Below are positions 29,018 through 61,528 of a DNA stretch of 64,000 nt, piece after piece. The notes beneath the pieces were generated by a model, which saw only the letters and a list, made by a program, of their open reading frames with translations, had not been told where the DNA came from and did not search any database. Origin of the DNA: a virus; the IMG/VR virus record IMGVR_UViG_3300030102_006261, positions 78,161 to 142,160 of that record. The stretch is one strand, 5' to 3'. The translations under genes and the position numbers were made by a program. The stretch's first letter is position 1, and each line of letters begins with the position of its first letter.

Positions 29018-29026
29018 ACGTATAAT
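28998..29026 (+). promoter_or_regulatory. Consensus sigma70 promoter for the small membrane protein and porin operon
   Basis: TTGACT-17nt-TATAAT. Confidence 0.8.
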
Positions 29027-29310: not shown

Positions 29311-30339
29311 ATGATTAATATTGCAACTATTCTTCTTTCTGCACCTCTCATGAGTGGTGCAGCGGAAAACGTTAACGTTCATGAACTCATCATGGGGGTT
29401 CGCGAAGATTCTGCAACTCGCATGAGTCTTCGGGGTGACGACAGTCCCGTTACTGTCGATGTTTCTGGTTTCCTTCAGTTCCGTTATCTTTACAATGATG
29501 CCGGCTCGAATGAAGCCACCAGAGGATTTGACATTGATCGTGCCCGGATTAAGTTTTCGGGTGAAGCGTATGAATTTGGATATGCGATCAGTGGACAGTG
29601 GAGTGATACTGAGTTTGAACTCAAGGATGCGTTCCTCACCAAGAACATTGGTGGGTTTGATGTCAAGGCGGGGCAGTTCGTAACTAGTTTCTATAACGGT
29701 TACGTCTCTGATCCAACCACGCTTGTGACTGGTGACTACAGCATCACTGCTCTAACTTATGGACAGGGTTACTCGCAAGGTATTGAAGTTAGCAGAGAGT
29801 ACGATTCTTTCTCATTCTACGCATCATATAACGATGGCTTCAACACCGACAACAGTAGCTTTGGTGACAATGACTATGGAGTCAGTGGACGAGTGGAATT
29901 TACTGGTATCGATAACGTGACTCTTGGTGGTGCATTTGCAAATGAGCAGACTGCAACTGAGAGCTATGATACTTACACGTTTGATGCCAGTTTTGATTTT
30001 GATGAGTTTGTATTTGATGCTGCGTATGTCGCATCAAATCGTGTTGAAGATAGCTGGAACAACTACTCCATTGTTGGCACTGCCAGCTACGTCATGAGTT
30101 CTGATTTCCAGATTTTTGGACAATACGAGTATGGTGTCATGGAAGGTGCCATGTCTGATCTGAATATTGGAACAATTGGTGCGAATATTATCTTCAACCC
30201 CAATGTTCGTTGGACTAACTCTTTTGGATATGCGTTTAACGCTGTCGATGGTGGATACAACCTGTCCGACACTGGATGGGAAAGCTCCTCTACCGACGGT
30301 CAGTATGTCATCAAGAGTATGTTGACTATCAGTTTTTGA
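29311..30339 (+). CDS. Outer-membrane porin (OprO/OprP-like beta-barrel)
   Basis: Signal peptide, VSGFLQFRY, GFDIDRARIKFSG, LKDAFL..VKAGQF, alternating strands, C-terminal Phe. Confidence 0.8.
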   Translation: MINIATILLSAPLMSGAAENVNVHELIMGVREDSATRMSLRGDDSPVTVDVSGFLQFRYLYNDAGSNEATRGFDIDRARIKFSGEAYEFGYAISGQWSDTEFELKDAFLTKNIGGFDVKAGQFVTSFYNGYVSDPTTLVTGDYSITALTYGQGYSQGIEVSREYDSFSFYASYNDGFNTDNSSFGDNDYGVSGRVEFTGIDNVTLGGAFANEQTATESYDTYTFDASFDFDEFVFDAAYVASNRVEDSWNNYSIVGTASYVMSSDFQIFGQYEYGVMEGAMSDLNIGTIGANIIFNPNVRWTNSFGYAFNAVDGGYNLSDTGWESSSTDGQYVIKSMLTISF

Positions 30340-30349
30340 TATATAAAGT
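30322..30349 (+). promoter_or_regulatory. Putative sigma70 promoter for a short RNA starting near 30356
   Basis: TTGACT-16nt-TAAAGT, the same spacing as other promoters in this window. Confidence 0.5.
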
Positions 30350-30355
30350 TATATA

Positions 30356-30420
30356 ATGAGGGACTGGATCACCCTCTATCCGTGTGCAAGAGGGGACTTT
30401 AAAGTCCCCTCTTGTTATTT
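30356..30420 (+). ncRNA. Candidate small RNA resembling the 16S rRNA 3' tail
   Basis: Putative promoter, CTGGATCACCCTCT core, terminator hairpin; 26/27 identity to 39430-39456. Confidence 0.45.
30387..30414. terminator. Perfect 28-bp palindrome, probable bidirectional terminator
   Basis: caagaggggacttt/aaagtcccctcttg, followed by a T-rich tract on the plus strand. Confidence 0.8.
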
Positions 30421-30493
30421 AATAATTTGTTACTATTTTTATATTTTTTATTTTGTAGTGAACACTTTTTCTTGTAATATTGATTACTGGCAT
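30419..30493 (-). CDS. 24-aa basic peptide MPVINITRKSVHYKIKNIKIVTNY
   Basis: CATAAATA late-like promoter (30513-30520), SD AAGGGAG, stop just before the palindromic terminator. Confidence 0.45.
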   Translation of the reverse strand: MPVINITRKSVHYKIKNIKIVTNY

Positions 30494-30550
30494 CGTGTGT
30501 CTCCCTTGCAAGTATTTATGTTATATAAGTACTTGTGAAGGGAAATATGT

Positions 30551-31117
30551 ATGATTGTAGCGGGAATCGATTATTCATTGTGCGGACCAGCGATCTGTGT
30601 ATTTAAGGGTGAAGACTTGGATGTGTTTTCATTTAGTAAATGTAAATTTTACTATCTGACAGACACTAAAAAATATGCAAAAACTTTTCTTACTAACATA
30701 CACGGAAGTGTTTTTGAAGAGTATAATCATGATTGTGAGCGTTACGACACAATTTCCTCTTGGGCGGCTGATGTGTGTTACGGATGTGAACAAGTTGGAC
30801 TAGAGGGATATGCATATGGAGCTAAGGGTAGAGTATTTCATATCGCAGAAAACACTGGTATATTAAAGTACAAATTCTTTCAGAATAATATTCCAGTTGA
30901 AGTAATAACTCCATCTGAAGTTAAGAAACGTGCATGTGGGAAAGGTAATGCAAACAAAGCGGATATGCACAGTGCCTTTCGAAAAGACACTGGATATGAT
31001 TTGACTAAAATAATGACACCAGATAAAAAAGAAGTTACGAATCCGGTGTCTGATATTGTCGATGCTTACTATGTTTGCAAATGTTTGCACGATAACATAA
31101 AATATACACTGATTTAA
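30551..31117 (+). CDS. RuvC-like Holliday junction resolvase
   Basis: AGIDYS, LEGYAY, IAENTGILK, P.EVKK..GKGNANK, DIVDAY. Confidence 0.85.
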   Translation: MIVAGIDYSLCGPAICVFKGEDLDVFSFSKCKFYYLTDTKKYAKTFLTNIHGSVFEEYNHDCERYDTISSWAADVCYGCEQVGLEGYAYGAKGRVFHIAENTGILKYKFFQNNIPVEVITPSEVKKRACGKGNANKADMHSAFRKDTGYDLTKIMTPDKKEVTNPVSDIVDAYYVCKCLHDNIKYTLI

Positions 31118-31121
31118 ATAC

Positions 31122-31147
31122 AACACCGGCGATCTCTCACCGGTATT
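31122..31147 (-). terminator. Hairpin with GAGA tetraloop between convergent genes
   Basis: Minus strand aataccggtga-gaga-tcgccggtgtt. Confidence 0.55.
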
Positions 31148-31179
31148 GATTGGGTTTATATTCAATTGTTTTTAGACTT

Positions 31180-33012
31180 TTACTCCGTTTGTGTAAAGTA
31201 AACGCCAGTGATGGGACACCACCACGGGTCGTTTGGTCCGAAAGGATTCTCGAATACGTCATCGACATTCATGTTGGAATTCCACATGAGTTCGTCTGGA
31301 CCATAGAAAGTCCATGATGCACCAGCAGTCGGTGCAGGGAACCAAGGTTGAGTCCTATCCCAATCCTCGAAACAGTCCTCAATCTTGACATTCTCGAATC
31401 GCCAGGTTTGGTTTGTTTCACTCCATGTCCACGGGCCCTCTTCGTTTCGTGAACCATCAGGATTGCTCCTGTCGAAAGTGAACGTGCTATGTCTATCGGG
31501 AAGGTTACTTTGCTTCTGGACAAGAATACAATCCTTGAACAAGTTGTTCTTCGCAGGACCACACCATCTCCAGATGAGAGAGACTGGACTACACTCAGGA
31601 ATGCCATTTCCTCCTTGGTTTGAGAGTTGGACATTCACCCATGCAGAGTTATGAATACCACCACCAGGCCTCTCACCGGGACAACCATGCACACCCTGCT
31701 CTCTGCAAGTATGATTGCCGTAGATGTCACGAAGAATCACGTTCTGGTGAATGTAGTCGATACCGTTGTATTGCATGTAGTCAATGTGACATGCGGTGGG
31801 ATCAATTTCACCCAAAGGATTGTGATTGGTGATTTCGATACTCAGAAGCAACTGTGCAAAGTGCAATTCAAGTGCATCGCAAGCAACACTGTCAAGCACA
31901 CAGTTACGCATAATGATGCCAGTCGTGCCTTCTTGTGTCCAAGTGTGTATGGTATCAGTCCACCACTGAAATCCACCCTTGCCTGTGACAAACATGGTTT
32001 CGGTATCCTCGCTGTAGTCGTGACCCTTGATGATACAACCATCGTACCACCGTCCACCGTATCTCTTCGTTCCACCATTCAGAATTCTTTCCTGATCGGT
32101 ATCGACGAAGACATCCTTGAGTCTGCATAGACTCTTCGTGAGAAATCCACCACCACTTGAGGTGTTCTCGTTTGCAACAATCTTACAGTCTGCCGATGCG
32201 ACGCCGGGTGCCGGTGTAATCGTGAAGTATCGTCCGTTGCTTTGACGGAACGAGTTCAGTGGCCAACCGCCGCTTGCATCGATAGTGTGTTCGCCTTCGA
32301 GTAGGTAGACGGTAGTTCCACCAATCTCGGCGTATGGTTGTTGCAGACCAGAACGAAGTGCATCGTGGAGTCCCTTGTATGGGTTCTCCCGTGTGCCGTC
32401 ACCATTCACATCATCACCATCGGGAGAAATATAAAGTTCTCTCGTTGGCCAGTAACCTGTATTGTTACTGAATAGGTTCACCCCGTTGTACTGGGGTAGT
32501 GGGTAGTTCTCATCGTAAACATCACGATCAAGAACGACACTTGGGCCCATCGTGCCGAACACTTCTGCCGATACTGTAATCTTTGTGTCTGGATGTTTGC
32601 GAGTGTCAAGAGGGAACCAATACTCCATCTCACCCGTTCGAGGATTCAGAGTCATCTCCTTGACTCTAATAATTTCTGGTTTGTGTGGAACCTGATGTCC
32701 CCATGCACCAAGGAGATGAGTGATTTCTCTCCCCCCAACTCCTGCTCCCCATTGTCTCAGAAGAACAGAGAGGTCTTCCCCGTCTACAATCTCGTCGTGA
32801 TTCCAATCTCCGACGTATCCTTGACGGTTGATCGTGAACTCTACACGATCTATGCCTTCTAAGTGGTAGGCGACTACTCCCACTTCAAATACACCAGTAA
32901 CATCTTGCTGTGGCACAACATCAAAATATGCCATAGGGGGTTCTGTTTCTGGGGCGTAAACGGGAACGTCGCCGTTGCATAATATTGATAATCCAACCAA
33001 TAAATCTAGCAT
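31180..33012 (-). CDS. Exported protein with dockerin/EF-hand-like motif and DUF1565/pectin-lyase-like beta-helix
   Basis: SD AAGGAG before ATG 33012; hydrophobic N-terminus; GDWNHDEIVDGEDLSVLLRQWG; YISPDGDDVNGDGTRENPYK, VYLLEGEH. Confidence 0.65.
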   Translation of the reverse strand: MLDLLVGLSILCNGDVPVYAPETEPPMAYFDVVPQQDVTGVFEVGVVAYHLEGIDRVEFTINRQGYVGDWNHDEIVDGEDLSVLLRQWGAGVGGREITHLLGAWGHQVPHKPEIIRVKEMTLNPRTGEMEYWFPLDTRKHPDTKITVSAEVFGTMGPSVVLDRDVYDENYPLPQYNGVNLFSNNTGYWPTRELYISPDGDDVNGDGTRENPYKGLHDALRSGLQQPYAEIGGTTVYLLEGEHTIDASGGWPLNSFRQSNGRYFTITPAPGVASADCKIVANENTSSGGGFLTKSLCRLKDVFVDTDQERILNGGTKRYGGRWYDGCIIKGHDYSEDTETMFVTGKGGFQWWTDTIHTWTQEGTTGIIMRNCVLDSVACDALELHFAQLLLSIEITNHNPLGEIDPTACHIDYMQYNGIDYIHQNVILRDIYGNHTCREQGVHGCPGERPGGGIHNSAWVNVQLSNQGGNGIPECSPVSLIWRWCGPAKNNLFKDCILVQKQSNLPDRHSTFTFDRSNPDGSRNEEGPWTWSETNQTWRFENVKIEDCFEDWDRTQPWFPAPTAGASWTFYGPDELMWNSNMNVDDVFENPFGPNDPWWCPITGVYFTQTE

Positions 33013-33197
33013 TGTAATTCTCCTTATGTACATGCCTTTGTCGAGTTGTCAAATAAATATCCCAGATAAAAACGTATCATTTTAATCGGGGATCCTGCAA
33101 CTTAACGCAGGAATTAAACGAGTACGACCTCGTTCCGATTCTAGAATCGGATTTGCATTCATAAAGAAAAATCAATTGGTATCGTAATATGTATGTG

Positions 33198-33416
33198 TTA
33201 GTTAGTTTTTTCTTTCCATGTTTTTACAGTTATTATCACTAATACGATAATAAGTAAAATATACCATGGAATCCATGTGCGAGTTGCGGTTTCTGCGGCA
33301 ACCGCGATGTTATTTATTTTTTCCGGTTGTAGTGAGGGTTTAGCGTTGTTGATAACACGACCAGTTTCACAACCAAACAATAAAAGTAACGACATAAATG
33401 GAATTAAGTATTTCAT
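33198..33416 (-). CDS. Small lipoprotein with C-terminal TM helix
   Basis: Lipobox LLFGC after a signal peptide; hydrophobic C-terminal segment. Confidence 0.6.
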   Translation of the reverse strand: MKYLIPFMSLLLLFGCETGRVINNAKPSLQPEKINNIAVAAETATRTWIPWYILLIIVLVIITVKTWKEKTN

Positions 33417-33862
33417 GCTCTGTTTGCCGCAACTGCATTACCAAAGTAGAATCCTACGATGCTAATTAGAATTTGTCTATTTTCTTTCAGTAAAAGATAA
33501 CCATCTACTGGCTCTAGTGTGGTTGTTGTTTGTGATCCCGCCAAACCAAAGATATCCCACCACTGTCGTCCAGTCTCTTCTATTTCAACAACTGTTGGAA
33601 TTCCAAAGAATGGTAAGAGGAAGGGTGCTAGTATCGTACCAAATAATATCGCTATCACAATACCTCTACGCACCCATTTACCAGCACTCACTGATACGCG
33701 ATCGACTGCACCATCGTAATTTTCATTACTTGCTTTGTTTGCTTCTATTATACGATTGAAAACTTCAGCTTGCTCTTTTCTTCTTTCTGCATTCGATCGA
33801 AATAAGAAACCAACAAGACTACTTCCCACTAGGGACAAAAATTCAGCGGTTAAGAATTCCAT
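33413..33862 (-). CDS. Membrane protein, holin-like
   Basis: Three hydrophobic segments ending in IVGFYFG. Confidence 0.55.
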   Translation of the reverse strand: MEFLTAEFLSLVGSSLVGFLFRSNAERRKEQAEVFNRIIEANKASNENYDGAVDRVSVSAGKWVRRGIVIAILFGTILAPFLLPFFGIPTVVEIEETGRQWWDIFGLAGSQTTTTLEPVDGYLLLKENRQILISIVGFYFGNAVAANRA

Positions 33863-34414
33863 TTACTTCCTCTTTTTTCTTTTTTTCTTTCTTCTTGATA
33901 AAAAAGTTTTTCTATCCATACCAAGGGGAATATCAAATCCCTGAATCGCATCATTCCTTGATGATATACCAACGTCTGGTCCAGCACCAAATGCGGCTGC
34001 ACCCATGGAGTTTGTTGCGATACCTCCAGCACCATTCTCTTCTTTCAGACTAAACATAATAGACTTTAGATTTTCAATGACATATTCTCTATCCGCTCCC
34101 ATTTTTTCGGCCTCCTCGGCAAGTAAACCGAGAGCGGTAGTGAAACCTCTTAACTTATAATTGATTGCCGGATTTGGAATCATCTCAAAAAGTTGTTTAA
34201 TTTTAAATACTAATTTCTTAAACGGAGTGACAATCTGTTTCTCCTCTGCGGTTAAGCTAGAGTATTTCTTAGTAAGGTCTCCCTTTTCGTTTATCAGCCC
34301 CTGTCTGTATGCATCAGTTTGCATGAATGGGGTGGTAAGCTCTTGTACAAAGGTGTATAAAGTGAACGCATTTATTAGTTCGGAAGCAGCCAAATTTTCT
34401 TCTATTCTTTGCAT
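33863..34414 (-). CDS. Conserved T4-like hypothetical protein
   Basis: LTTPF..TDAY..GLI.EKG pattern; basic C-terminus. Confidence 0.65.
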   Translation of the reverse strand: MQRIEENLAASELINAFTLYTFVQELTTPFMQTDAYRQGLINEKGDLTKKYSSLTAEEKQIVTPFKKLVFKIKQLFEMIPNPAINYKLRGFTTALGLLAEEAEKMGADREYVIENLKSIMFSLKEENGAGGIATNSMGAAAFGAGPDVGISSRNDAIQGFDIPLGMDRKTFLSRRKKKRKKRK

Positions 34415-34791
34415 GTTATTTCCTTTAACTTTAGATCTATTCTGTGATCAGTCGATATGAGATCTAAATCTATTTCGGGTATTGTTTTTGGCATTAATTT
34501 TAAGTAACTCAAAAAGCTTTTTACCATTCCGTGGTATTCAGTGTCTAATTTGTGAAACAGTAATCTAGTGCATGATCCATATTTAAATACATTGTTTAGT
34601 ATTATAATGTGATTTAGTATTAACCTTATCTTTAACTCACCTGTTTTTTCAAATCTACTAAATAACCTTTTAATGTATTTTATTCTGTTTAGATCCTCTT
34701 GGAATTCGGCTTCACTTTCACAAGACGGGTTGTCATACATTTCACGAACAAATAAATCATAATTTTCCTCTTTAAGAGGTTGACTAAACAT
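34402..34791 (-). CDS. Conserved T4-like hypothetical protein
   Basis: YDNPSC..EF.EDL.RIKYIKRL, RLILNHIIIL.NVF. Confidence 0.7.
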   Translation of the reverse strand: MFSQPLKEENYDLFVREMYDNPSCESEAEFQEDLNRIKYIKRLFSRFEKTGELKIRLILNHIIILNNVFKYGSCTRLLFHKLDTEYHGMVKSFLSYLKLMPKTIPEIDLDLISTDHRIDLKLKEITCKE

Positions 34792-34797
34792 TCAAAT

Positions 34798-35367
34798 TCA
34801 TTCCTCTTCTTCTGGTGTCACCTCTTCAGAGTCAGTTTCTTCTTCTTCCATCTCTTCGGTTGCATCATCAATGCTTAGATCTAGTCTGTGTAGACCGTTC
34901 GGTGTTTCTTCCAAATTAATTGTAAGATTTAATCCAACACCACCTCTAGCATCAGAGATACCATCAGAGTTTATGAATCCATTTTTTAACAGATCATGAT
35001 CTGGTGAAGTTCCAAAAACACCACCAAAACGTGTCATTCTGTAAACCATAGGCTCACCGGTTCGCATAGCCATTTCACAGTCATTTTTAGCGGGATTGAA
35101 ATCAAAATCTAGTCCAATGATGTTCAGTTTAGATCTAAGAATTGACAGAGCTGCCTTTGGATCTAAGTATTCTTTTCTGCTAAACGCATTCAAGAAAGCG
35201 GATACTCTCTTTTTCTGACTATCCTTCTCTATTCGGTGAACACCTTCATCACTATGAATGGAGTTTGCTCCACCCGGAGCGGATGGTGTACCACCGAGAG
35301 CGCCACCCTCGGTATATTCCATTTCATGTAGATTTAAGCTGTTGGCGAGTTCCTTAAACTTTTTCAT
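34798..35367 (-). CDS. Hypothetical protein with capsid-targeting-like N-terminus
   Basis: MKKFKEL..L.LHE; acidic tail. Confidence 0.6.
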   Translation of the reverse strand: MKKFKELANSLNLHEMEYTEGGALGGTPSAPGGANSIHSDEGVHRIEKDSQKKRVSAFLNAFSRKEYLDPKAALSILRSKLNIIGLDFDFNPAKNDCEMAMRTGEPMVYRMTRFGGVFGTSPDHDLLKNGFINSDGISDARGGVGLNLTINLEETPNGLHRLDLSIDDATEEMEEEETDSEEVTPEEEE

Positions 35368-36143
35368 CGATCTTCTCTCCTATAACGAGTTACTTCGTTT
35401 AGATTTTTTAGTCTACCATTATTTAGGTAATTGTAAAACTGCTCATTTTTTGATTTTCTCTTTTTACCCTTTTGCTTATTCTTTCCACGTTTTCTAGGAT
35501 TCTCACCCTTCGCTCGAATAGTAGCAATAGCGTAAGCCATGTCAGATACAGATCCTCGTGATGGCTTTAGATCACCTTTGTCGAGCAACTCTTTAGCAAT
35601 CTTGTCTCTTTTTTCTTGCTCTGCCTTAGTTAGTTTTCTTTCACTGAGCATCTCGCCTTGTGGGTCATATGAGTCTTCTACTTTACTACCCGCTCTCCAC
35701 TGACGACAGCTCCAGTATCCTGCTTTAGTTTTGTCTTTCTTTTCATCGCAATTGTGTCGAGCACGGAAATTTTTTCTTCTCTCTGGATCGTCTCTTTTGA
35801 TCTCCATGTTTGGATCACCGAATGAAACTTTGATGATATTGCCTTTTTGGTTGCGAACATACACGCCAAACTTTTTGTTACCACCACTTTGTCGGAAAGG
35901 TTTATTGAGAGTTACCTTCTTACCCTTGTACTCAGCTTCACTGATGTTTACTGACACACTTACTGTATCATCATAACGAAGACGAATTGAATCACTTTCT
36001 TTTTCCTCATCTAATACCTGAATTTCACAGAAACTTTTTGATATTTTATCAAGTGACACAAACTGATATACATCATTTTCTATGATAAAAATATCATTCT
36101 CAATTAAGTCACAAACTCTTTTTTCATAGTTTTTAGATTTCAT
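35364..36143 (-). CDS. Conserved phage hypothetical protein (basic)
   Basis: AEYKGKKVTLNKPFR, KKFGVYV, FGDPNM, RKNFRARHNC, YWSC motif block. Confidence 0.7.
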   Translation of the reverse strand: MKSKNYEKRVCDLIENDIFIIENDVYQFVSLDKISKSFCEIQVLDEEKESDSIRLRYDDTVSVSVNISEAEYKGKKVTLNKPFRQSGGNKKFGVYVRNQKGNIIKVSFGDPNMEIKRDDPERRKNFRARHNCDEKKDKTKAGYWSCRQWRAGSKVEDSYDPQGEMLSERKLTKAEQEKRDKIAKELLDKGDLKPSRGSVSDMAYAIATIRAKGENPRKRGKNKQKGKKRKSKNEQFYNYLNNGRLKNLNEVTRYRREDR

Positions 36144-36418
36144 TGTCTACCCCTTGCTGACATCTCTTCTAGCTCTTTTCTTATCCAGAGGAGATCGGTT
36201 TTTATTTCTGCTAGATCAGCCGCTAAGGTTATCCTAAAAGCTTCGGCGGTATCTAATCGTAGATCGAGTTGAGTTAATTCAGCCTCTATTGAATCAAGTC
36301 GCATCGAATAGTTAGCATCTTTTACCGCAACTTGCCAAAGCACGGAGGCTATGGTCAACCCCCACCCAATCAATACCGCATAGATTGTGATATTATTTTT
36401 TGCTGTTTCTTTTGTCAT
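36140..36418 (-). CDS. Small membrane-anchored coiled-coil protein
   Basis: N-terminal TM helix then heptad pattern. Confidence 0.6.
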   Translation of the reverse strand: MTKETAKNNITIYAVLIGWGLTIASVLWQVAVKDANYSMRLDSIEAELTQLDLRLDTAEAFRITLAADLAEIKTDLLWIRKELEEMSARGRQ

Positions 36419-39326
36419 GCTTTACTTTCTTTTTTTGTGGGGTTTGACCTGGTGTGTCCCTTAAGTATTTATTCAGTAATTCTGTAGTGCCCTCGAAGCC
36501 AGCTCCATACTCCTCGTTTGCTCTTTTTCTTTGACCATTGTCTGATCTATTTGCACTTCTACTTCTTACTCTTAAATTTGACTCTTCATTTGAGCCACCA
36601 TTACGTAAGGGTTTTTCGTGATCTACATCTTTACCCTGAAGAGCTTCTTTTCCCATTTGCTTTTCTTTTTTTCTTCTCGCCATAACTCTATCGCTGCGAT
36701 TAGCTCTTTGCTCGGGCTTTGAGTGGTAGTTATCGTATTCTTTTCTGTAGTTTCTATTTTTTTCAAGAACGATGAAATCAAACATTCTATCGATGTACTC
36801 GACCTCTTCATTTGTAATCATTTCAAAGTTCGGATCTATTGGGATTCTGACACGTCTACCATTTATCTCAAGCTCGTTGAATTTGGTAGATTTGTCCATC
36901 GTGTATTCTGTGAAGTCTATTGGCTCGGTATCAACACTTTCTACACCCAATTTCATAAATTCCATAAGTTTAAATACATCTTCACCAACGTTTTCAAGTG
37001 CAGCTCGAAGGTACTCTTGACTGTTACCAGATCCGTAATCTTTGAATTGTCCAGTGTATGATGGGTCAGTGTAGCTCATGGTCTGATCAGAATACCTTTG
37101 CACATCAGATTCAAATCCACCCATGTTATAACCTGCGGGTTCCGATTCCATGTAATCCATATCTGAACCTGCCCCACTAGCGAGTCCAGAGTCACCAACA
37201 CCACCAGTGTACTCTTTCAACGAAACCATATTTTTCAAACTGATTTTTTGTTCTTGTGTAACCATTGGTGGTTGGTATTTGCCCATGTGCATCTGTAACG
37301 CTGTTCTGAAGTTAAATGCTTGGGCCTCTTCTTCAGTTGCGGGATCATCCAAATCATAAAATGGCGCACTCAGAGCTAACATCATCTTTGGTGCTTGTGC
37401 AATTTTTTCAATATATTCATCCGTGATTGGTGTTAGATTTGTATTCGTACCATCTTTGTTTCCGCTAATAATTGAATTTGCGGATGCAATTGATTCTGGA
37501 CCGAACTTCAACTCTCCAGTTAAAGATTCACGCACAAATGATTTTTTAAAATCATTATTTTGTGTGAAGATATTTTCTATGTTTGATGAGATGTCAGTTG
37601 TAACTTTCTCAATCTCTTTCATCTCTGGAAGTTCTTCAATCGACTTTTGTTTTTCCCTCTCTGTTTTAGCTTGCATCGCGGTGATGTTTATAAAAGTCTC
37701 GCTTAGTCTCTTGGTGGTATCTTTTACAAACTTCTTAACTTTAGGGCTTTGTGCGATTGATTCACCAACCTCAGTCGTTGCTATTGCATTGAAAATTGGA
37801 GGACCGTCTGCAAGTGGATTGGATATGATTTTAGCCATACCAATTTTCATGGCTGCTTTTATTGTTTCCTCTGATGTATCTTTCTTACCTTTAGGTTTGA
37901 AATAAACTTCAGTGATTGGAGTTGAGTCAGTTCCACCTACTAGCTGCCAATTTTTATTTGTTTTTTCTGTTCCGGGTGTGAGAATTACCGCTTCGAAGTT
38001 TTGTGGAATCTTCTCCGTTAATTTTTCTATAGCTCTGAATCCAGCGGCCTCTAGAGTCTCACTCTCTCCGATTTTGGACAAGTCTGGATCGTTAAGTAAA
38101 CCACTAAACGGGTTGTTTTTTGTTGCAGAGTTCCAAGCATGTACGATACCTGCATCCAAATCATTCGCACCATGATCCCAATCTGGGAATACTGATCCCT
38201 TCCCTGTTATTTCTTTCCCGTCAGGTGGTAGTCTTGGTGGTTCGGGTGGTGGTGACATCATAAGAGGGTTCATGGGTGCCATCTGTGGATCAGCCGATAT
38301 TGCTTGCCCCTCGGGAGACATCTGTTGACCGCCTCCCATCTGAGGCGAATCCAAACCAAACATCTGAATTAGTCGTTTTGATGTTTTGGATTGCTCAAAG
38401 TCTGGTTCTTGCATTACGCTAAACGTGGTCTGGGGAGTAACCTCACCTCTAGGTGGTAAACCCTTTATGTTACCTGTAACTAGTTCATGCTTTTTGTAAC
38501 TGAAGTCTGCCTTTGGAATAATACGAAGCTTACCATCTTGTGTTGTTCTCACAATAGCGAGTTCTGGCCAGGGGTTAGTCTTCATTTTGTCTCTGGACGC
38601 AGCTCTGTCGGTTCTCTTGCGATCTCTGTCCACTGTCTCGTCGCCGTCAGGATTGCTTCTTGCGTTGTCTAGTTTCATCTGACGAGTGACTGGTTTTTCT
38701 TTTGTCATTTCTTGCTCTGACAATAGCTCTTGCACACCGTGATATGCGTCAGCAAATTCATAGAACTCCTCTAGATTGAACCACTCTGGAATATTTTCGT
38801 AATCAAAGTTTTCGTTTGTGTTCTGCATTTGTTTTATGAATTCCTCTTTGGTTTCGTCGCTCACCGGAGCCATCATGTCATTTACTTGTTTTTTATTTCC
38901 GGATCTCGCTGCATCACGCAGTGCAGTGCCAGAGTGACCTCCCAAGGTCTCTCTGTCAATGGAGTTTACATTGATATTTATGCCCCCAAAGTCTTTGTGT
39001 GATGCTATTCGTTTCATTTCAGCCTCTCTGTCATCACCTACATGGACGTTAACGGTGCTGAAATTATTTTCTCGTGCATGATCTACGGCATGTTCAAACG
39101 CATGGAATGCGCTTTTTACTGGAAGAACAGATGTTCCTTTGGGTGCTACTTCTTTTATTGCTTTTTGTCTGTGCTCTACTGTCAGGGGATATCGTGGATC
39201 CTCTGGATCGTGTTTTTGTGTCACAAAAACAAACTTGTTGTGATCCTCGGGCATTTGATTAAACACACCATGATGTGCCTTGGTGAGTCCATGATAACGC
39301 CCTACTGTAAAGCTAACTTCTGACAT
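36393..39326 (-). CDS. Multidomain protein: cytidylyltransferase-like N-terminus, HNH-like C-terminus
   Basis: FTVGRYHGLTKAH..YPL..VGDDR..SGTALR; C-terminal GKDVDHEKPL.NGGSN..NLRV..NRS. Confidence 0.7.
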   Translation of the reverse strand: MSEVSFTVGRYHGLTKAHHGVFNQMPEDHNKFVFVTQKHDPEDPRYPLTVEHRQKAIKEVAPKGTSVLPVKSAFHAFEHAVDHARENNFSTVNVHVGDDREAEMKRIASHKDFGGININVNSIDRETLGGHSGTALRDAARSGNKKQVNDMMAPVSDETKEEFIKQMQNTNENFDYENIPEWFNLEEFYEFADAYHGVQELLSEQEMTKEKPVTRQMKLDNARSNPDGDETVDRDRKRTDRAASRDKMKTNPWPELAIVRTTQDGKLRIIPKADFSYKKHELVTGNIKGLPPRGEVTPQTTFSVMQEPDFEQSKTSKRLIQMFGLDSPQMGGGQQMSPEGQAISADPQMAPMNPLMMSPPPEPPRLPPDGKEITGKGSVFPDWDHGANDLDAGIVHAWNSATKNNPFSGLLNDPDLSKIGESETLEAAGFRAIEKLTEKIPQNFEAVILTPGTEKTNKNWQLVGGTDSTPITEVYFKPKGKKDTSEETIKAAMKIGMAKIISNPLADGPPIFNAIATTEVGESIAQSPKVKKFVKDTTKRLSETFINITAMQAKTEREKQKSIEELPEMKEIEKVTTDISSNIENIFTQNNDFKKSFVRESLTGELKFGPESIASANSIISGNKDGTNTNLTPITDEYIEKIAQAPKMMLALSAPFYDLDDPATEEEAQAFNFRTALQMHMGKYQPPMVTQEQKISLKNMVSLKEYTGGVGDSGLASGAGSDMDYMESEPAGYNMGGFESDVQRYSDQTMSYTDPSYTGQFKDYGSGNSQEYLRAALENVGEDVFKLMEFMKLGVESVDTEPIDFTEYTMDKSTKFNELEINGRRVRIPIDPNFEMITNEEVEYIDRMFDFIVLEKNRNYRKEYDNYHSKPEQRANRSDRVMARRKKEKQMGKEALQGKDVDHEKPLRNGGSNEESNLRVRSRSANRSDNGQRKRANEEYGAGFEGTTELLNKYLRDTPGQTPQKKKVKHDKRNSKK

Positions 39327-39347
39327 AATAACTCCATATAGCTATTA

Positions 39348-39355
39348 TATTTATA
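39348..39355 (-). promoter_or_regulatory. T4-type late promoter TATAAATA
   Basis: Exact consensus upstream of SD GGAG and ATG 39326. Confidence 0.7.
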
Positions 39356-39385
39356 AAAAAACCGGAGAGCCCCGAGGGGCTCTCC
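39356..39385 (-). terminator. Rho-independent terminator
   Basis: ggagagccc-ctcg-gggctctcc followed by a T-run on the minus strand. Confidence 0.85.
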
Positions 39386-39387
39386 TG

Positions 39388-39492
39388 TATTCGTGTCAAG
39401 CTTTAAGGCTTTTATATTTTAAAGGGTTTGGACTGGATCACCCCCTATCCGTGTGCTAAAGTACTTTGAAAGACCTTAACTTAACACGAATA
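39388..39492 (-). ncRNA. Candidate structured RNA: long stem enclosing a 16S-complementary loop
   Basis: Arms 39388-39400/39480-39492 and 39403-39412/39469-39479 pair, with a G-U wobble on the minus strand; loop contains AGGGGGTGATCCAG. Confidence 0.55.
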
Positions 39493-39497
39493 GTGGT

Positions 39498-39623
39498 TTA
39501 GTCCTTATTCCATGGTAAGAATTTTTTAACCCAATTCCAGAGTGGAGTACCAATTAATGCGCCTGCTGCAAAAACTACTATGGTGAAAAAGGTGGTTCCT
39601 AATATGTCGTTAATCGCTTGCAT
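39498..39623 (-). CDS. 41-aa single-TM membrane peptide
   Basis: SD AAGGAG; MQAINDILGTTFFTIVVFAAGALIGTPLWNWVKKFLPWNKD. Confidence 0.65.
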   Translation of the reverse strand: MQAINDILGTTFFTIVVFAAGALIGTPLWNWVKKFLPWNKD

Positions 39624-39624
39624 T

Positions 39625-40092
39625 TTAATACTCCTTCTTTCTGCATGTGTACTTTTTGTGGTGTTTGCGCTTTCCTCGCGCAACCTCATACATTGCTGAT
39701 TTATTAAGTTTATGATCCCGGCAGAACTTACTGAAGTTTTCGATTTCAGTTTCGTTTCCTTCTGGATCCGTAATTATATATAAACTTTTTTGATTGGCAA
39801 CAGAATTTTTTATGGTATTTACGTCACCCTCAGAGAGCGATATCCTTGATTTAAATGGATCTATGGGATTTATTTGATATTTTTTCTTTTGATTTGTATT
39901 TTTTTTCTTTGGTATGGGTAGGATCTTTGGTTTGTTGATTGGGGGAAAATACTGGTACCAGCTACCATTGTGTCTGAATTCTCCACCATTATTTTCCACA
40001 TAAATTTTTCTTAATTGTGCAGCTCTGGTGTTATCATTAAATTTTGTCCACATGGCAGAGTGTTTTACGTTAATTAAATCATGTACATTCAT
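39625..40092 (-). CDS. Hypothetical protein with NUMOD1-like HTH C-terminus
   Basis: ITDPEG..I.NFSKFCR.H.L..M..V..GKRKHHK.Y. Confidence 0.6.
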   Translation of the reverse strand: MNVHDLINVKHSAMWTKFNDNTRAAQLRKIYVENNGGEFRHNGSWYQYFPPINKPKILPIPKKKNTNQKKKYQINPIDPFKSRISLSEGDVNTIKNSVANQKSLYIITDPEGNETEIENFSKFCRDHKLNKSAMYEVARGKRKHHKKYTCRKKEY

Positions 40093-40472
40093 TTCGTATT
40101 TTCCATTTCACTCTTAATTCTCGTCAATAGTGTGTATGCAGCAAAAGTTCCATTTACTTCACGTTTAAATCTACTAAGTAACTTTCGTTCATCATCACCT
40201 TTCGTTTTAGACCATGAACGAAACCCCCTGTAGCTCAGTGGATATGATCTTGTTTTTCTGTACGATTGCACAAAATCAGCCAGTAATTTAGCTGCCTTGG
40301 GATTTGCATCCAATACTGATAGGAAACCAAATATTTCCCTAAACGTTTTCTTCAACAGGCCTAGATTAGATCCTATTTTTTTATCTTCTAATTTTTCGAT
40401 AGCGTCCCTGAGTGCTGATCTACTGAAAGCAGATGTCTCAAAATTGACTGAAGAGATTGGTGTGTTCTTCAT
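40089..40472 (-). CDS. Hypothetical protein
   Basis: ORF coupled to neighbours. Confidence 0.55.
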   Translation of the reverse strand: MKNTPISSVNFETSAFSRSALRDAIEKLEDKKIGSNLGLLKKTFREIFGFLSVLDANPKAAKLLADFVQSYRKTRSYPLSYRGFRSWSKTKGDDERKLLSRFKREVNGTFAAYTLLTRIKSEMENTK

Positions 40473-41115
40473 GGTACTCTCTTATCGTTTCATATAATTT
40501 TTTAGTATAGTCTATTGTCCTACCGCTAAAGACTTGTGAGTTACCATCTTCACAACTAATCAGTATGTGGAAGTGTGGTATCTCCTCCTTGTATATGTCT
40601 TGCCACATAAGAGCATAAGCAGTCGCTTGTAGGTAGTAATTTTCAATGTCCCGAAGACGTTTAGTTCTCGTTGAGCCTTTGAAGTCTATGATCGATAACT
40701 TTCCATCATACTCAGCGACACAGTCCGCTCTACCAGCTAGACCCACCTTGTCACTCCACAAACCAGTTTCTAAACCTCGTATGTTGTCTATCTTGTCTAG
40801 TTCTGGTTTTAATTGATTGAATAGTGTCAGTAAACTATCGGGAATATCGATACACTCATCAGTAATTAGAAGATTATTGTAGAGATATCGCTCGATGAGT
40901 TCATGAAACTCATTACCCCTCACTGTAACTCTCTTGGCCTCTTTTGGATTTTTTCTTCTCCAACTAGCAAAGAATTTAGACTTCTTCCAACCAGTAACCG
41001 TAGTCACGCTTGGTAGATGCTTACCAGAGGGAGAAAGATAATATCTGCCGGTATCGGTGGTGACAGCAGATATATCTTCTAAAATCTTAGATTGTGTCAC
41101 ATGATTAAATGTCAT
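40438..41115 (-). CDS. PD-(D/E)xK exonuclease (T4-like)
   Basis: RYY..P.G..LPSVTTV, RG.EFH, AGRADCVAEYDGKLSIIDFK, YYLQATAYA. Confidence 0.88.
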   Translation of the reverse strand: MTFNHVTQSKILEDISAVTTDTGRYYLSPSGKHLPSVTTVTGWKKSKFFASWRRKNPKEAKRVTVRGNEFHELIERYLYNNLLITDECIDIPDSLLTLFNQLKPELDKIDNIRGLETGLWSDKVGLAGRADCVAEYDGKLSIIDFKGSTRTKRLRDIENYYLQATAYALMWQDIYKEEIPHFHILISCEDGNSQVFSGRTIDYTKKLYETIREYHEEHTNLFSQF

Positions 41116-41121
41116 AATAAA

Positions 41122-41149
41122 ATTATATCAGAATTCAGTCTTCAGTCAA
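41122..41149 (-). promoter_or_regulatory. Sigma70 promoter for leaderless exonuclease mRNA
   Basis: TTGACT-16nt-TATAAT with TG extension, 6 nt before ATG 41115. Confidence 0.75.
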
Positions 41150-41482
41150 TGAATTATTATGGGCATTAAGTAAAGATTCGCCTAAGTGAACCTTGGCTTC
41201 GTCATCGAGGTTGTTAATTTCCTCCATGATCTTTGTGCTCATTTCATTGATCTGTTTATCATCGAACTCTACATTGAGGCTTTCCTCTACCGAGCCAATA
41301 TACTCTGCAATACCCTCAATCAATAATGAGTCAATGAGAACAGCTAACTCTTGAACTGCCTCATCAGTTTGTGTCGATTCTGACAGTTCTTGAGAAACAG
41401 TTTCCTCTTCCTCTTGAATGTCTCTGGTCATGATCTTTAAGGCAGTTTTTGCCAAATCTTTGGTTTTGTTATCTGAAAACAT
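41135..41482 (-). CDS. Acidic hypothetical protein
   Basis: SD AAGGA; TATACATA at 41513-41520. Confidence 0.6.
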   Translation of the reverse strand: MFSDNKTKDLAKTALKIMTRDIQEEEETVSQELSESTQTDEAVQELAVLIDSLLIEGIAEYIGSVEESLNVEFDDKQINEMSTKIMEEINNLDDEAKVHLGESLLNAHNNSLTED

Positions 41483-41523
41483 GGTTTTTTCCTTTAGTTT
41501 AGGATTACTTTATATGTATATGT

Positions 41524-42348
41524 TTAAAATGTTGAGTAGCCGGGAATGCCTTGACTCGTGAAAGTTGTGCCGAGGTAAGGATCAGTTTCACCTCTCTTGG
41601 CTCTTTCGAATCTGTCGGACTGGTATCCGTAGAACTTACCAGCAAGAACTGCTGCGAGTGATCCAGTTGCGGCCGCGGCGATATCGGGAGTTTTACTTTG
41701 TCCACGAGCCACCATCGATCGGACTCTGTTAAGTCTCTGCTGTCTGAGTTGCCCTGCTGCAACGTAAGATGATCTGGTTGGTCTATATCCGGCTGCGCGT
41801 TGCGTTGTTCCTACGGGTATCTGAGCTGCTTGAGTTGGAGTTCTACGAGTCGAACCGGTGGTCCTCGTCGCCGCTCGTTGCCCACGACTTGCTCTGAATC
41901 CCGGTGCCGCTTTTTGAATTACTTTTCCAACACCAGCACCCAGACCAACCCCTAACGCAGCAGGAAGAAGGGACATTCCAGTTTCGGGATCAGCTATTCC
42001 GGCTCCACCACCAATAATAGCACCGACGAGCCCGCCGAGCCCTCCTTTTAAAGCTCTTCTACCAATTCTCTTTGCTCTAGTTCCACCCCTAGTTCCCCCA
42101 TACTGAGATGCAAGGGCACCAATGGCCGCTCCACCGGCCGCACCCCTTAGGGCTCCCTGTGGTCCATAGAGAGATGCTGCTCGTTTTGCAAGTGCTTGTT
42201 CTAATCCAGCCCTGTAATATGGAAATAGTTGATTAGAATCAGAAGCTCTCTGTGACACCGACTTGGTTTTGAGTAGATAATCACCTAGTTGGCTGAATCC
42301 CCCCTTTGGGGCTTGTTCGTTTATTGGATTTGTGTTGTTTTCTTTCAT
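41524..42348 (-). CDS. Basic glycine-zipper protein
   Basis: GAAGGAAIGALA, GGLGGLVGAIIGGGAG. Confidence 0.6.
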   Translation of the reverse strand: MKENNTNPINEQAPKGGFSQLGDYLLKTKSVSQRASDSNQLFPYYRAGLEQALAKRAASLYGPQGALRGAAGGAAIGALASQYGGTRGGTRAKRIGRRALKGGLGGLVGAIIGGGAGIADPETGMSLLPAALGVGLGAGVGKVIQKAAPGFRASRGQRAATRTTGSTRRTPTQAAQIPVGTTQRAAGYRPTRSSYVAAGQLRQQRLNRVRSMVARGQSKTPDIAAAATGSLAAVLAGKFYGYQSDRFERAKRGETDPYLGTTFTSQGIPGYSTF

Positions 42349-42352
42349 GGTA

Positions 42353-43843
42353 TCACCTTGACATTACTGCGTCAACTCCTGCTGCTGTTGGTGAAAATCT
42401 TGGATTATACCCACCGAGAGATTTTAGAATTTCTAGACCTTGAGTTCCGGCGAGTAGTTGTGCTCCGCCCACACCAACATCACTTATTGCGTCTCCCACG
42501 GATCGACCGCTACCACTTTGTCCGAACCCCCCAAGCGCACTTAATCCAAGAGTTGCAGCAATTGCTGACATTATTGACTTCCCTGTTTCTCCTTTGGGAA
42601 AGGCTGCTTTAATGCGATCTAAGACTTTTGCTGTTGTGCCACTTTGCTCCATAATTGTTTTAGCAACTCCATATGAGAATTCCTCTCTGAATCCTCGTGG
42701 TGAGACTAACCTACCCATGCTTTGTCGTGAACGTTTGAATTCTGGATCATCTATTGGGGGAACTAACTCCTGTGGAACAGGGCGATCTTGTTGTGGTTGG
42801 TTTGGGTTGGTTGGTTGAACTGGTCGGACTGGTTGAACTGGTTTTCCTTGATCTTTAGGAGCTGTATTGGTGTCTGTATCTGTACGAGTTATTGGTGCGG
42901 GAGCTGGACGAAGAAGTATTGTTGTCCCAGTCGCCGCGGCCGCGGCTGCGGCTGCGGCCGCAGCTTTTTGTCTGGCTGTCATTCTTCCGGGTGCTACATC
43001 CACCTCTACTTTTCTCGCTGGTGTTGTTCTTGTCGTTGTTCCTGTTTCAACCCTGGCTCTTGCGGGTTTTGGATCCATCCGGAGTCCAGGCTGAGATGGT
43101 GCCTGCTCGATATCTCTTAGTAATCTTCCCAGAGGATCTCCACCCTCCTTACCACGAGCTAATGCTTGACGTGATACTGGAACATTACCTTGAGCAATCT
43201 CTGAAGCAAATTTACCTTCAATTGCCGCCATTTCTGCTGCTTCATCTGGAGTGAAAAACTTCTGCTGCCCGGGCAGGTCAACGTTCTTCAGATCCTCGGC
43301 ATCAAGATCTTTTACTGCTCTCTCCACTTTCGCTTTTCGTCTGGCTGCTGCTGCCGCCATATCAGCTTCTTTTGCTACGTCACCCATGCCTGGGAGTGCT
43401 TTTTGACCTTTCACTATTGCGGGTGCGGCCGCAGCAGCTAACTTTACTCCACCAACAGCTTGACCAGCAGCGGGAACCATCGCGCCCACGTTCATAGCAA
43501 GATCACCTAGTTTTAGATTGACAAGAGAGTCAATTGCTGCCGCGAAATCAGCACCTGCACCAATAACTGGTGTCATTCCTGCTCCTGTGAGAGCGAGCTG
43601 TCTTGCATCATAGTCAGTCGCTAATTCAACTGCTCTGGACGAGAGGAACTTGTTTAGCATCGACTGTTGCATGTCTGGGGTCATTCTGTCAGCGGCAGTG
43701 GAACTTGGTTTGAATCCATCAGGACCGTACATCTTGAACGGATCATTCTTCGCATTCAGAGCAGCCCTGTTATTGACTGCGTTGGGTTCATCAGTTGGGT
43801 TGCGTGACTCCATTATTTCACGATACTTTTGAAATCGGTTCAT
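42353..43843 (-). CDS. Ala-rich probable internal/ejected protein with pre-toxin-TG-like motif
   Basis: AGMTPVIGAGADFAAAI..GDLAMNVGAMVPAAGQAVGGVK. Confidence 0.6.
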   Translation of the reverse strand: MNRFQKYREIMESRNPTDEPNAVNNRAALNAKNDPFKMYGPDGFKPSSTAADRMTPDMQQSMLNKFLSSRAVELATDYDARQLALTGAGMTPVIGAGADFAAAIDSLVNLKLGDLAMNVGAMVPAAGQAVGGVKLAAAAAPAIVKGQKALPGMGDVAKEADMAAAAARRKAKVERAVKDLDAEDLKNVDLPGQQKFFTPDEAAEMAAIEGKFASEIAQGNVPVSRQALARGKEGGDPLGRLLRDIEQAPSQPGLRMDPKPARARVETGTTTRTTPARKVEVDVAPGRMTARQKAAAAAAAAAAATGTTILLRPAPAPITRTDTDTNTAPKDQGKPVQPVRPVQPTNPNQPQQDRPVPQELVPPIDDPEFKRSRQSMGRLVSPRGFREEFSYGVAKTIMEQSGTTAKVLDRIKAAFPKGETGKSIMSAIAATLGLSALGGFGQSGSGRSVGDAISDVGVGGAQLLAGTQGLEILKSLGGYNPRFSPTAAGVDAVMSR

Positions 43844-44631
43844 TTTCTTGTTGCTCTTTCTTTTGATCTTCTAGTCTCAAGTGTGCCTTTAACTTTTTTC
43901 TTGATTGTTTTTGATCTCGGTCCCTCTTGTGCTAGCTCTCCACCGGGAACACCCTTTAGTTTTCTTGTTTTTGCAAGTGCTGCTTCAGGTCCTCTGGGAG
44001 TGGTGACGGTTCTCTCCACACCAAGTAAAGCGTTCATTTCATCGGGTGATGCGCCGAGGAGGTTCGACAAATAGTCATAAGCGGCTAAACTACCTACTTG
44101 AAATCCTAAACCCCTTAGAATTCCACCAAAGCTTTCGGTAATTGTGGATTTGATGTGATCATGTCTGGTGCTTTCTAATGGTGTGTAACCTCTAGCTTCC
44201 AGATCTTTCTCTTCTTTCTCTTTTTTCTTTTTATCATGAGCTGCTATTAGCGCCATGATTTCTTCTTCAGACATACCGGGTTTAATTCCTACTTCTTCGG
44301 GGGTGCCGAAACCTGATATGACGGCGTTAGTAACATTTCCAAGAAAATCTCTAACCATCTGAAAGTAGCCCTTGCCCTCTGCTGGACTTGTTTCTGGTGA
44401 CATGTAGTTATCAAAATATGGAATTTCGACATTTCGACCCAAAATGCTCTGAGTTTTAAATCCAGCGGGTTTTATATCACCGGCTGATGCCGGTGTGGGG
44501 ACTTTAACAGAGGGTTCATTTCTTTTCTTTGCGAATCCGGTGGCTGGATCTAATTTAAAACCACCAGTGGGAAAATTGCCACTTCCACCAATCGACTCCA
44601 TGATTGTTCTTATGTTTTTCTCTAAGGACAT
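43840..44631 (-). CDS. Hypothetical probable internal protein
   Basis: SD GAGG; N-terminus ending in ..TIME; TATATATA at 44655-44662. Confidence 0.6.
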   Translation of the reverse strand: MSLEKNIRTIMESIGGSGNFPTGGFKLDPATGFAKKRNEPSVKVPTPASAGDIKPAGFKTQSILGRNVEIPYFDNYMSPETSPAEGKGYFQMVRDFLGNVTNAVISGFGTPEEVGIKPGMSEEEIMALIAAHDKKKKEKEEKDLEARGYTPLESTRHDHIKSTITESFGGILRGLGFQVGSLAAYDYLSNLLGASPDEMNALLGVERTVTTPRGPEAALAKTRKLKGVPGGELAQEGPRSKTIKKKVKGTLETRRSKERATRK

Positions 44632-44664
44632 ATTTACCTCACAGTGTTATATAGTATATATAAA

Positions 44665-44755
44665 ATAACCCCCACCAAAGACGGATCACCCTCTGACTAA
44701 TGGTGGGGGTTTTAGCGCGGTCCCAAGGTAGCGGGCGCAAAGCCCATCGGCGCTA
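44665..44755 (-). ncRNA. Candidate structured 3'-UTR/terminator RNA with 16S-complementary loop
   Basis: GC-rich multistem 44713-44755, then stem cccccacca/tggtggggg enclosing AGAGGGTGATCC, then a T-rich tail. Confidence 0.45.
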
Positions 44756-46765: not shown

Positions 46766-46815
46766 TAAATAATTTTTAATTATACAGAAAACCTAAACTA
46801 CCGCAAGTATTTATA

Positions 46816-58934: not shown

Positions 58935-58945
58935 TGTGGCTACTA

Positions 58946-59134
58946 TCAACGTGCCTCTTTGTACCTATCGATCAGTTCGTTTATCCACTGCCGTGCATCC
59001 CACACATCTTTCCTGCCACTTAACTGTGTCTTGAACACCATCTCATGTAGACCGTTTGCAATGTGATCGTCCAGTTCAATCTCCAGAACGACCTTGTTTC
59101 CAGTCTCGTCTGTTTCTTTTGGCATCTTTGTCAT
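58946..59134 (-). CDS. Small hypothetical protein
   Basis: ATG 59134 with upstream GGAG; start uncertain. Confidence 0.45.
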   Translation of the reverse strand: MTKMPKETDETGNKVVLEIELDDHIANGLHEMVFKTQLSGRKDVWDARQWINELIDRYKEAR

Positions 59135-59227
59135 CCTTCTTGCTCCAGGTCTTGGAGCGGAGCGATTGCCGCCCCGCCCCATCCTTGTTCCACTGAGATC
59201 CACGCCTCGACTTGGGTGCCTTCCGTT

Positions 59228-61417: not shown

Positions 61418-61423
61418 GGGTGT

Positions 61424-61451
61424 ATTTTACCACATCTCAGGGTGTACACAA
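61424..61451 (-). promoter_or_regulatory. Early promoter, leaderless
   Basis: TTGTGT-16nt-TAAAAT with TG extension, 6 nt before ATG 61417. Confidence 0.7.
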
Positions 61452-61482
61452 GGGGTATACACTGTATTCGACGAAAATAGTG

Positions 61483-61519
61483 AAAAAAAAAGTGCCTCTC
61501 GAATCGCTCCGAGAGGCAC
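61483..61519 (-). terminator. Rho-independent terminator
   Basis: gtgcctctcg/cgagaggcac stem followed by T9 on the minus strand. Confidence 0.85.
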
Positions 61520-61528
61520 CTATGAACA

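Follow-up and report, generated by a model that had tools for sequence, protein, structure and literature searches.

The DNA analyzed here, a 64-kb stretch of a virus genome (the window; positions 78,161 to 142,160 of IMG/VR virus record IMGVR_UViG_3300030102_006261), carries a 27-nt intergenic element at 30361-30387 (S1) and again at 39430-39456 (S2), with a single T/C difference between the copies. The window forms the final part of the 142-kb record, which is estimated to be 78% complete, and encodes replication proteins of T4 type (a gp43-like polymerase, UvsX, a gp41-like helicase and a primase). S1 follows a plus-strand porin-like gene and S2 a minus-strand gene for a small membrane protein, p41, while a 12-nt core of the element recurs exactly at 44683-44694 (S3) after a minus-strand LysM gene (Table 1). 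Each site lies between a stop codon and a terminator-like end, S1 on the plus strand and S2 and S3 on the minus strand. Sequences, coordinates and strands are those given by a first-pass annotation of this DNA, which had read S2 and S3 as Shine-Dalgarno (SD) decoys for the 16S rRNA 3′ tail and S1 as a small RNA (sRNA) that mimics the anti-SD and acts as their antidote. Comparison with related phages, where S1 and S2 are kept, as that annotation required, indicates that these two are selected, strand-specific RNA elements.

Table 1. Positions of the S1, S2 and S3 sites and of the genes and signals around them, in window coordinates
Feature	Position	Strand	Description
sigma70-like promoter of the porin transcript	28998..29026	+	TTGACT-17-TATAAT, 11/12
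Porin-like gene	29311..30339	+	342 aa; clade-C orthologue matches Pfam Porin_O_P; protein ends in F
S1	30358..30387	+	Hairpin GAGGG[ACUGGAUCA]CCCUC plus 3′ extension
Intrinsic terminator of the porin/S1 transcript	30386..30425	+	Terminator at 30386-30415, after S1
Intrinsic terminator of the p41/S2 transcript	39364..39385	-	Followed by TATAAATA (39348-39355), then the 977-aa gene (36393-39326)
S2 segment R3	39388..39400	-	Distal arm pairing with R1 over 12-15 bp; compensatory changes between clades
S2 segment R2	39430..39456	-	27-mer; invariant core CACACnGnUAGGRGGUGAUCCAG; complements the 16S 3′ tail
S2 segment R1	39480..39504	-	Rich in pyrimidines; degenerate copy, in cis, of the 16S tail/S1; runs over the p41 stop codon; pairs with R2 (fold II) or R3 (fold I)
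p41 gene	39498..39623	-	41 aa, single hydrophobic membrane helix; ATG 39623, SD AAGGAG, stop 39500-39498
sigma70-like promoter upstream of p41	39773..39800	-	TTGCCA-16-TATAAT, 11/12; inside the HNH open reading frame
S3 region	44669..44752	-	Two hairpins forming a terminator region past the LysM gene; the first has the 12-mer (44683-44694) in its loop

The window has two copies of the 27-mer and the 142-kb record as a whole has no more, both on the plus strand, with 0 copies expected from 100 shuffles. Its 12-nt core has three forward copies, no reverse copy and no match to a reversed-pattern control; simple arithmetic gives a chance of ~0.02 for a third exact 12-mer across 284 kb (both strands). 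Comparison of the whole window with Rfam returned 0 matches at the gathering score, and the three weak matches (E <= 5) within 30000-45000 overlap none of S1, S2 and S3. A covariance model built on S2 and run on the window found only S2 itself (E = 3e-9) and the reverse complement of S1 (E = 0.015).

Relatives were obtained by several routes. Megablast of 12 kb of the window against 50,697 phage records gave no match. A search with a 21-nt pattern yielded three viral contigs with orthologous S1 and S2 sites, a search with the porin protein yielded 11 loci, and a DNA-pattern scan of metagenomes yielded 34, four of which (three distinct sequences) are chance hits. Searches with single proteins for the S2 and S3 loci found none, an alignment-based search returned known contigs only, and the genomic context of a 103-kb clade-C metagenome contig was recovered via an exact-protein match. 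The relatives are uncultured marine T4-like phages, which we sorted into clades A (the window genome, G003 and others), B (G004, L066), C (L040, L073 and many others), D (L053, L072) and E (G006, G008-G010). S2 is present in ~30 related viral and metagenome contigs from clades A-D. All clade-A copies have T in S1 and C in S2 at the position that differs within the window, placing a U of the plus-strand S1 transcript opposite a G of the minus-strand S2 transcript. The wobble pair that had been predicted at this mismatch is fixed in every clade-A relative seen, and a second S1/S2 difference, in G003, again sets U opposite G.

S2 begins 6 nt past the p41 stop codon and closes at the minus-strand terminator. 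In RNA sense its block CACACnGnUAGGRGGUGAUCCAG...ACCCU is invariant in 16/16 aligned sequences, and it stays so between clades A and B while the N-terminus of the neighboring 977-aa protein retains just 35% identity. Translation of a micro-open reading frame, which would make S2 an ordinary ribosome-binding site (RBS), had been named among the findings that would refute a decoy; no conserved start codon or micro-frame emerged. No ATG, GTG or TTG at usable spacing follows the GGAGG/GGGGG of S2 in any clade, the only GTG overlapping the SD, and the downstream frames are not conserved, with indels that differ by clade. We thus rejected an ordinary RBS, there being no start codon of a conserved frame in range, and likewise a leader of the 977-aa late gene, because the terminator and TATAAATA, a T4-type late-promoter word, intervene.

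Once the nucleotides just past the p41 stop are included, a common fold appears in all clades. The helix statistics rest on per-sequence constrained folds and duplex energies compared with shuffles, plus visible compensatory changes; in MAFFT alignments the helix register shifts between clades, and RNAalifold therefore missed the long helices. In fold II, R1, which starts within the last p41 codons, pairs with R2 through many G·U pairs and masks the anti-tail block (-20 to -26 kcal/mol, z -3.3 to -5.6 against shuffled R1, four clades). This helix is more stable in the minus sense than on the opposite strand in 15/15 sequences, which assigns the S2 RNA to the minus strand. In fold I, the R1 core instead pairs with R3 over 12-15 bp (-13 to -21 kcal/mol, z -3.1 to -7.5, four clades), leaving R2 exposed in the loop of a small hairpin. 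The R1/R3 arms read UUCGUGUUAAG/CUUGACACGAA in clade A, UCGUGUCGAG/CUCGACAC in B, UUUUGUGUUGA/UCAACACAAAA in C and UAUCGUGUUGA/UCAAUGCGAUA in D, and a C-to-U change in clade-C R1 is matched by G-to-A changes in both R2 and R3. Since both helices use the same R1 core and the energies of the two constrained folds differ by no more than a few kcal/mol in any of the 15 sequences, S2 is predicted to be a bistable element. R1 in turn amounts to a degenerate copy of both the 16S tail and S1 (GGCUGAUCA...UCUUAU in clade C, for instance). Its helix with R2 recurs in all clades; the SD-side strand is perfect, the tail-side strand only degenerate and rich in wobble pairs.

The likeness of R2 to the 16S tail was evaluated against bacterial rRNA operons collected via a 23S word. 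The 16S ends of 32 bacterial genomes, all that were recoverable, read GGCTGGATCACCTCCT. In clades B-D, R2 contains the exact 15-nt complement AGGAGGUGAUCCAGC (15/15 Watson-Crick pairs), and in clade A two transitions (A to G, C to U) both still allow G·U pairing with 16S over the 15 positions. The predicted duplex amounts to ~-34 kcal/mol in all 15 sequences, and the chance expectation, by simple arithmetic, is ~2e-7 for a fixed 15-mer target in a ~100-nt element on two strands. When the whole genome was compared with eight real rRNA operons (blastn-short), the top matches were 14-17-mers elsewhere that are no better than those of shuffled genomes, and S1, S2 and S3 were not among them. The rRNA likeness is not significant in the window alone, and the 16S argument therefore rests on the orthologous sites in relatives. 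The idea of S2 as an SD decoy holds insofar as S2 complements the 16S tail on the minus transcript, but a simple stem-loop does not describe it, the element being bistable with a mask in cis.

S1 is more variable. In every clade that has it, the motif stands in a hairpin loop 12-18 nt past the porin stop and just ahead of the terminator. Each clade closes this loop with a stem of unrelated sequence (GAGGG/CCCUC in A, ACUCAUU/AAUGAGU in B, UCAUUAAA/UUUAAUGA in C), and the stem at L024, ACUCGUUA/UAAUGAGU, contains a G·U pair that works on the plus strand only. Across clades CUGGAUCAC alone is constant; the anti-SD part reads CCCUC (A), CUUUC (B) or CCUCC (C), with CCUCU also among the variants. 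The clade-C loop shows GCUGGAUCACCUCC, 14 nt identical to the 16S tail with the anti-SD included, and the window genome has 10 nt exact. S1 thus copies the 16S 3′ tail on the plus transcript, as an anti-SD mimic should, but its conserved part is CUGGAUCAC and not CCUCC. Nor is a separate sRNA with its own promoter required: a promoter-like site (30322-30349, 9/12) occurs in clade A only, with none evident in B or C, and together with the constant position behind the porin stop this makes an element of the 3′ untranslated region (UTR) the safer reading. Pairing of S1 with a generic SD is weak (-5 to -10 kcal/mol), and its complementarity to the RBSs of the porin, p41, RuvC and 977-aa genes is not above background (z -1.6 to +1.0). 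Both S1 targeting of these RBSs and a cis model like that of icaR, described below, were rejected because no pairing signal was found. As to the upstream gene, Porin_O_P denotes phosphate-selective porins, the clade-C orthologue lies at L073 17147-18184, and the terminal F resembles that of outer-membrane beta-barrels. Judged by its family, the phage porin may serve phosphate uptake as an auxiliary metabolic gene, and its presence implies a Gram-negative host.

S1 and R2 are complementary in clades A, B and C, over 27 nt with one G·U in clade A (-59 kcal/mol), 13 contiguous nt in B (-33 kcal/mol) and 14 nt in C (-35 kcal/mol). In A and B this exceeds the 16S-like part, and the clade-B sites have ACUGCUGGAUCAC in common. 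S1, S2 and p41 occur together in clades A, B and C. Clade E, in which genes are tightly packed, retains the porin, RuvC, PDDEXK and nucleotidyltransferase neighbors, and S1, p41 and S2 are all absent, the porin stop running straight into a terminator. Homologues of p41 fall into 21 protein clusters, and the more distant ones are followed by plain terminators with no S2, so that S2 appears to have arisen within one sub-lineage. In one distant lineage (L202 5381-5469; L203 141-228) the terminator after the p41 homologue is GAUAGGAGAGGU[UUAAUC]ACCUCUCCUUUCUUUUU, a hairpin in which one arm is SD-like and the other, together with its tail, looks like the 16S 3′ end carrying 2 inserted nt; by its sequence, it could represent a precursor state of S2.

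Overall, the conservation, strand sense, paired folds, complementarities and co-occurrence of these sites suggest, tentatively and with somewhat less than even confidence on our part, that S2 is a gated 30S-binding site and S1 its competitor or opener in trans. S1 and S2 would then be matched RNA elements in the 3′ UTRs of the oppositely oriented porin and p41 mRNAs. On nascent RNA, R1, the wobble-rich cis copy of the tail that starts in the last p41 codons, would mask R2 until released by strand invasion or by a ribosome that terminates on p41. Freed R1 would pair with R3, exposing R2 in its hairpin loop, and the exposed R2 could bind the anti-SD tail of a 30S subunit in a 15-bp duplex with no start codon in range. 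A 30S subunit might thereby be captured or parked, or the fate of the p41 mRNA coupled to p41 translation. The S1 loop, whose predicted pairing with R2 equals or exceeds that of the ribosome, would compete for S2 or open it in trans if the two RNAs meet in vivo. A bolder version, which we regard as doubtful, makes S2 a translation-gated 30S trap in which each round of p41 translation would unmask the 15-nt anti-tail and S1 would set the number of subunits trapped, an RNA-only circuit tuning the pool of initiation-competent ribosomes in hosts whose cells may contain no more than a few hundred.

Several observations weigh against a gated 30S-binding site. Transcription, RNA ends and relative timing are deduced from promoters, terminators and the logic of wobble pairing; a sigma70-like promoter precedes each transcript, with no temporal separation evident, and no evidence was found for the switch of translation between infection phases that had been proposed. 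A phage has no evident benefit from 30S subunits parked on a 3′ UTR. S1 is less constrained than S2 and lacks CCUCC in clade B, and the word mimic may overstate its role. In the window genome the 16S likeness is 10 nt exact, which is not above genome-wide chance. The sharing beyond the 16S-like part in A and B could stem from gene conversion between DNA loci and not from selection for pairing, and the co-absence in clade E amounts to a single evolutionary event.

A rival reading is that of two independent elements, with S1 a general anti-SD-type loop acting on many mRNAs, S2 an SD/anti-SD helix acting in cis, and their mutual complementarity a by-product of the common relation to 16S. The clade-C S1:S2 complementarity does comprise exactly the 16S-like 14 nt and no more. 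We consider this reading rather unlikely, however, given that conservation in S1 does not fall on CCUCC, that clade B has no anti-SD, that S1 pairs poorly with generic SDs and no better than background with local RBSs, that complementarity extends past the 16S-like part in A and B, and that both elements were lost together in clade E. Another rival is an arrangement resembling a type I toxin-antitoxin module: p41 would be a small membrane toxin or holin-like protein, and S1 a trans antisense RNA acting on S2 through refolding and/or RNase III cleavage that removes a protective terminator, the 16S likeness being secondary. With 41 residues, one hydrophobic helix and a strong SD, p41 has the appropriate form; its mRNA 3′ UTR is complementary to S1 over 13-27 nt, it co-occurs with both elements, the 27-bp duplex of clade A suffices for RNase III, and bistable folds are typical of type I toxin mRNAs. 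Even so, such a module is unlikely, since it leaves unexplained both the exact 15-mer 16S complement in three clades and the wobble-compatible changes in clade A. The clade B and C duplexes reach just 13-14 contiguous bp, S1 is no dedicated sRNA gene, and the distant p41 homologues without S2 disfavor an obligatory control or antidote.

A protein could also be the target, if the tail copies (S1, and R1:R2 as an SD/anti-SD helix mimic) bound Era (GAUCACCUCC), YbeY, KsgA, bS21 or bS1 and so titrated or recruited it. Era recognizes a sequence that includes GAUCA (PMC10582724), a word present in the invariant core of S1, and the SD-anti-SD mimic of OLE RNA binds bS21 (PMC12054373). Protein binding explains neither the need for an exact antisense partner, R2, nor the co-occurrence of S1 and S2, and a bS21 gene was not found in the virus record (an estimated 78% of the genome); such a decoy is improbable. 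Least probable of all, to the point of being hardly credible, are sites that function as DNA, whether for binding or for recombination, such as an HNH homing target or direct repeats that excise a 9-kb segment. All copies do lie on the plus strand whatever the gene direction, an HNH gene is 170 nt from S2, and the core contains GATC. Nonetheless, the sense-specific G·U pairs, the compensatory helix changes, the placement between stop and terminator, and clade-specific hairpins with the motif always in the loop all point to RNA; moreover, clade C retains S2 without an adjacent HNH gene, and S1/S2 identity is down to 13-14 bp in B and C.

Regulatory RNAs with anti-SD-like loops are known, and so, independently, are SD-like sequences that retain ribosomes. 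RsaE/RoxS and, in Alphaproteobacteria, Cuckoo/alpha-r14 are stand-alone sRNA genes with short repeated UCCC/CCUCC motifs and many mRNA targets. Like S1, such C-rich RNAs show a sequence resembling the 16S anti-SD in hairpin loops; S1 differs in keeping CUGGAUCAC, which within the tail lies 5′ of the anti-SD, in its 3′-UTR location and in having one long dedicated partner. In Bacillus, pairing of the antitoxin RNA SR4 with the bsrG 3′ end leads to refolding and cleavage, and txpA/RatA is another such pair. These systems share with p41/S2 an mRNA for a small hydrophobic peptide whose structured 3′ region is an antisense-RNA target capable of refolding, but their antitoxins are cis-encoded and overlapping, whereas S1 lies 9 kb away in another mRNA and its target is a 16S-tail complement. 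The Staphylococcus aureus icaR mRNA carries a C-rich, anti-SD-like 3′-UTR motif that acts in cis on the SD of its own 5′ UTR (PMC3868564). The motif type and the RNA-RNA pairing with an SD-like sequence are alike; S1, in contrast, has as its partner a block of 15-27 nt that lacks a start codon and belongs to the 3′ UTR of a different mRNA. OLE RNA, a 600-nt RNA of Bacillota, contains in P6 an SD-anti-SD mimic of 6 nt and binds bS21 (PMC12054373). There an anti-SD copy and an SD-like strand are paired within one RNA, R1:R2 being a possible intramolecular analogue, but S2 has a 15-nt perfect SD-side complement, a degenerate tail side, a two-state fold and a second tail copy in trans. At STAB-SD sites and in the ribosome-protected hbs mRNA, an SD-like sequence without an open reading frame (ORF) binds 30S and changes mRNA fate (PMC5737220). 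STAB-SD sits near the 5′ end and blocks the 5′ exonuclease RNase J1 in Gram-positives; S2 is likewise ORF-less and SD-like, but lies in a 3′ UTR between stop and terminator, is masked and far longer, and belongs to a phage with a porin of Gram-negative type. Our search of the literature and Rfam found no system that combines an ORF-less 15-nt 16S-tail complement, a masked two-state fold after a stop codon and a second locus with a tail copy. If S2 binds 30S, it would provide a natural phage-encoded tool for manipulating the anti-SD at the RNA level, and a sequence-defined system for the study of post-termination ribosomes and 3′-UTR engagement. Given the near-universal sequence of the 16S tail, synthetic RNAs and 30S subunits from E. 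coli would suffice for simple in vitro tests of the predictions.

S3, which had been counted as the third member, probably does not belong to the system, judging from its orthologues. The region is kept in relatives as a double hairpin, and complementarity to S1 and to the 16S tail is lost. The first hairpin (44669-44709) lies past the stop of the LysM gene; G003 has a substitution inside the 12-mer (GGATCACTCTCT), and the clade-C sequence (GUGAUUCC; loop CAGAGAGUGAUUCC) complements neither the 16S tail nor clade-C S1. On the plus strand the second hairpin (44710-44752) contains CGGTCCCAAGGTAGCG, 15/16 identical to a universally conserved 23S rRNA word, and G003 and clade C retain this block, with high conservation, as CGGTCCTAGGTAGCGATGCCCAA. 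A role as antisense to 23S H69/H70 was rejected, as the majority form has a 1-nt deletion (8+8) and the window form matches at 15/16, both within genome-wide chance.

Around S2, clades A and B have an HNH endonuclease gene (39625-40092 in the window, minus strand) directly upstream of p41, and its position in clade C is taken by a 116-aa ORF beside a PDDEXK nuclease gene. The N-terminal ~170 residues of the 977-aa late protein are nucleotidyltransferase-like (GR..GxT..H motif). In clade E the nucleotidyltransferase is a stand-alone 194-aa gene (L198 11582-12166), which identifies this part as a fusion in clades A-C.

Elsewhere, the window encodes a class II ribonucleotide reductase, a RuvC-like resolvase, the LysM protein and a 3218-aa ORF. 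The reductase points, though the gene is mobile, to phages of marine Alphaproteobacteria. The 3218-aa ORF (46816-56472, minus strand), whose clade-C counterpart has at least 2132 aa, ends right before another TATAAATA word (46808-46815), which precedes the next gene. Positions 1-10000 are of low GC content (0.34-0.38) with plus-strand genes, among them the paralogous ORFs 7054-8058 and 8043-9140, which have in common a 50-nt repeat at 72% identity. A tandem array of 18-nt period at 10947-11126 places glycine at every third codon of a large plus-strand ORF, and a second array, of 12-nt period and CACCACCAG type, lies at 26761-26953 near the end of a plus-strand 1306-aa ORF. The last 6 kb (58000-64000) form a compositionally distinct end block, with a GC content of 0.53-0.54 against 0.34-0.45 elsewhere and long ORFs that overlap on both strands.

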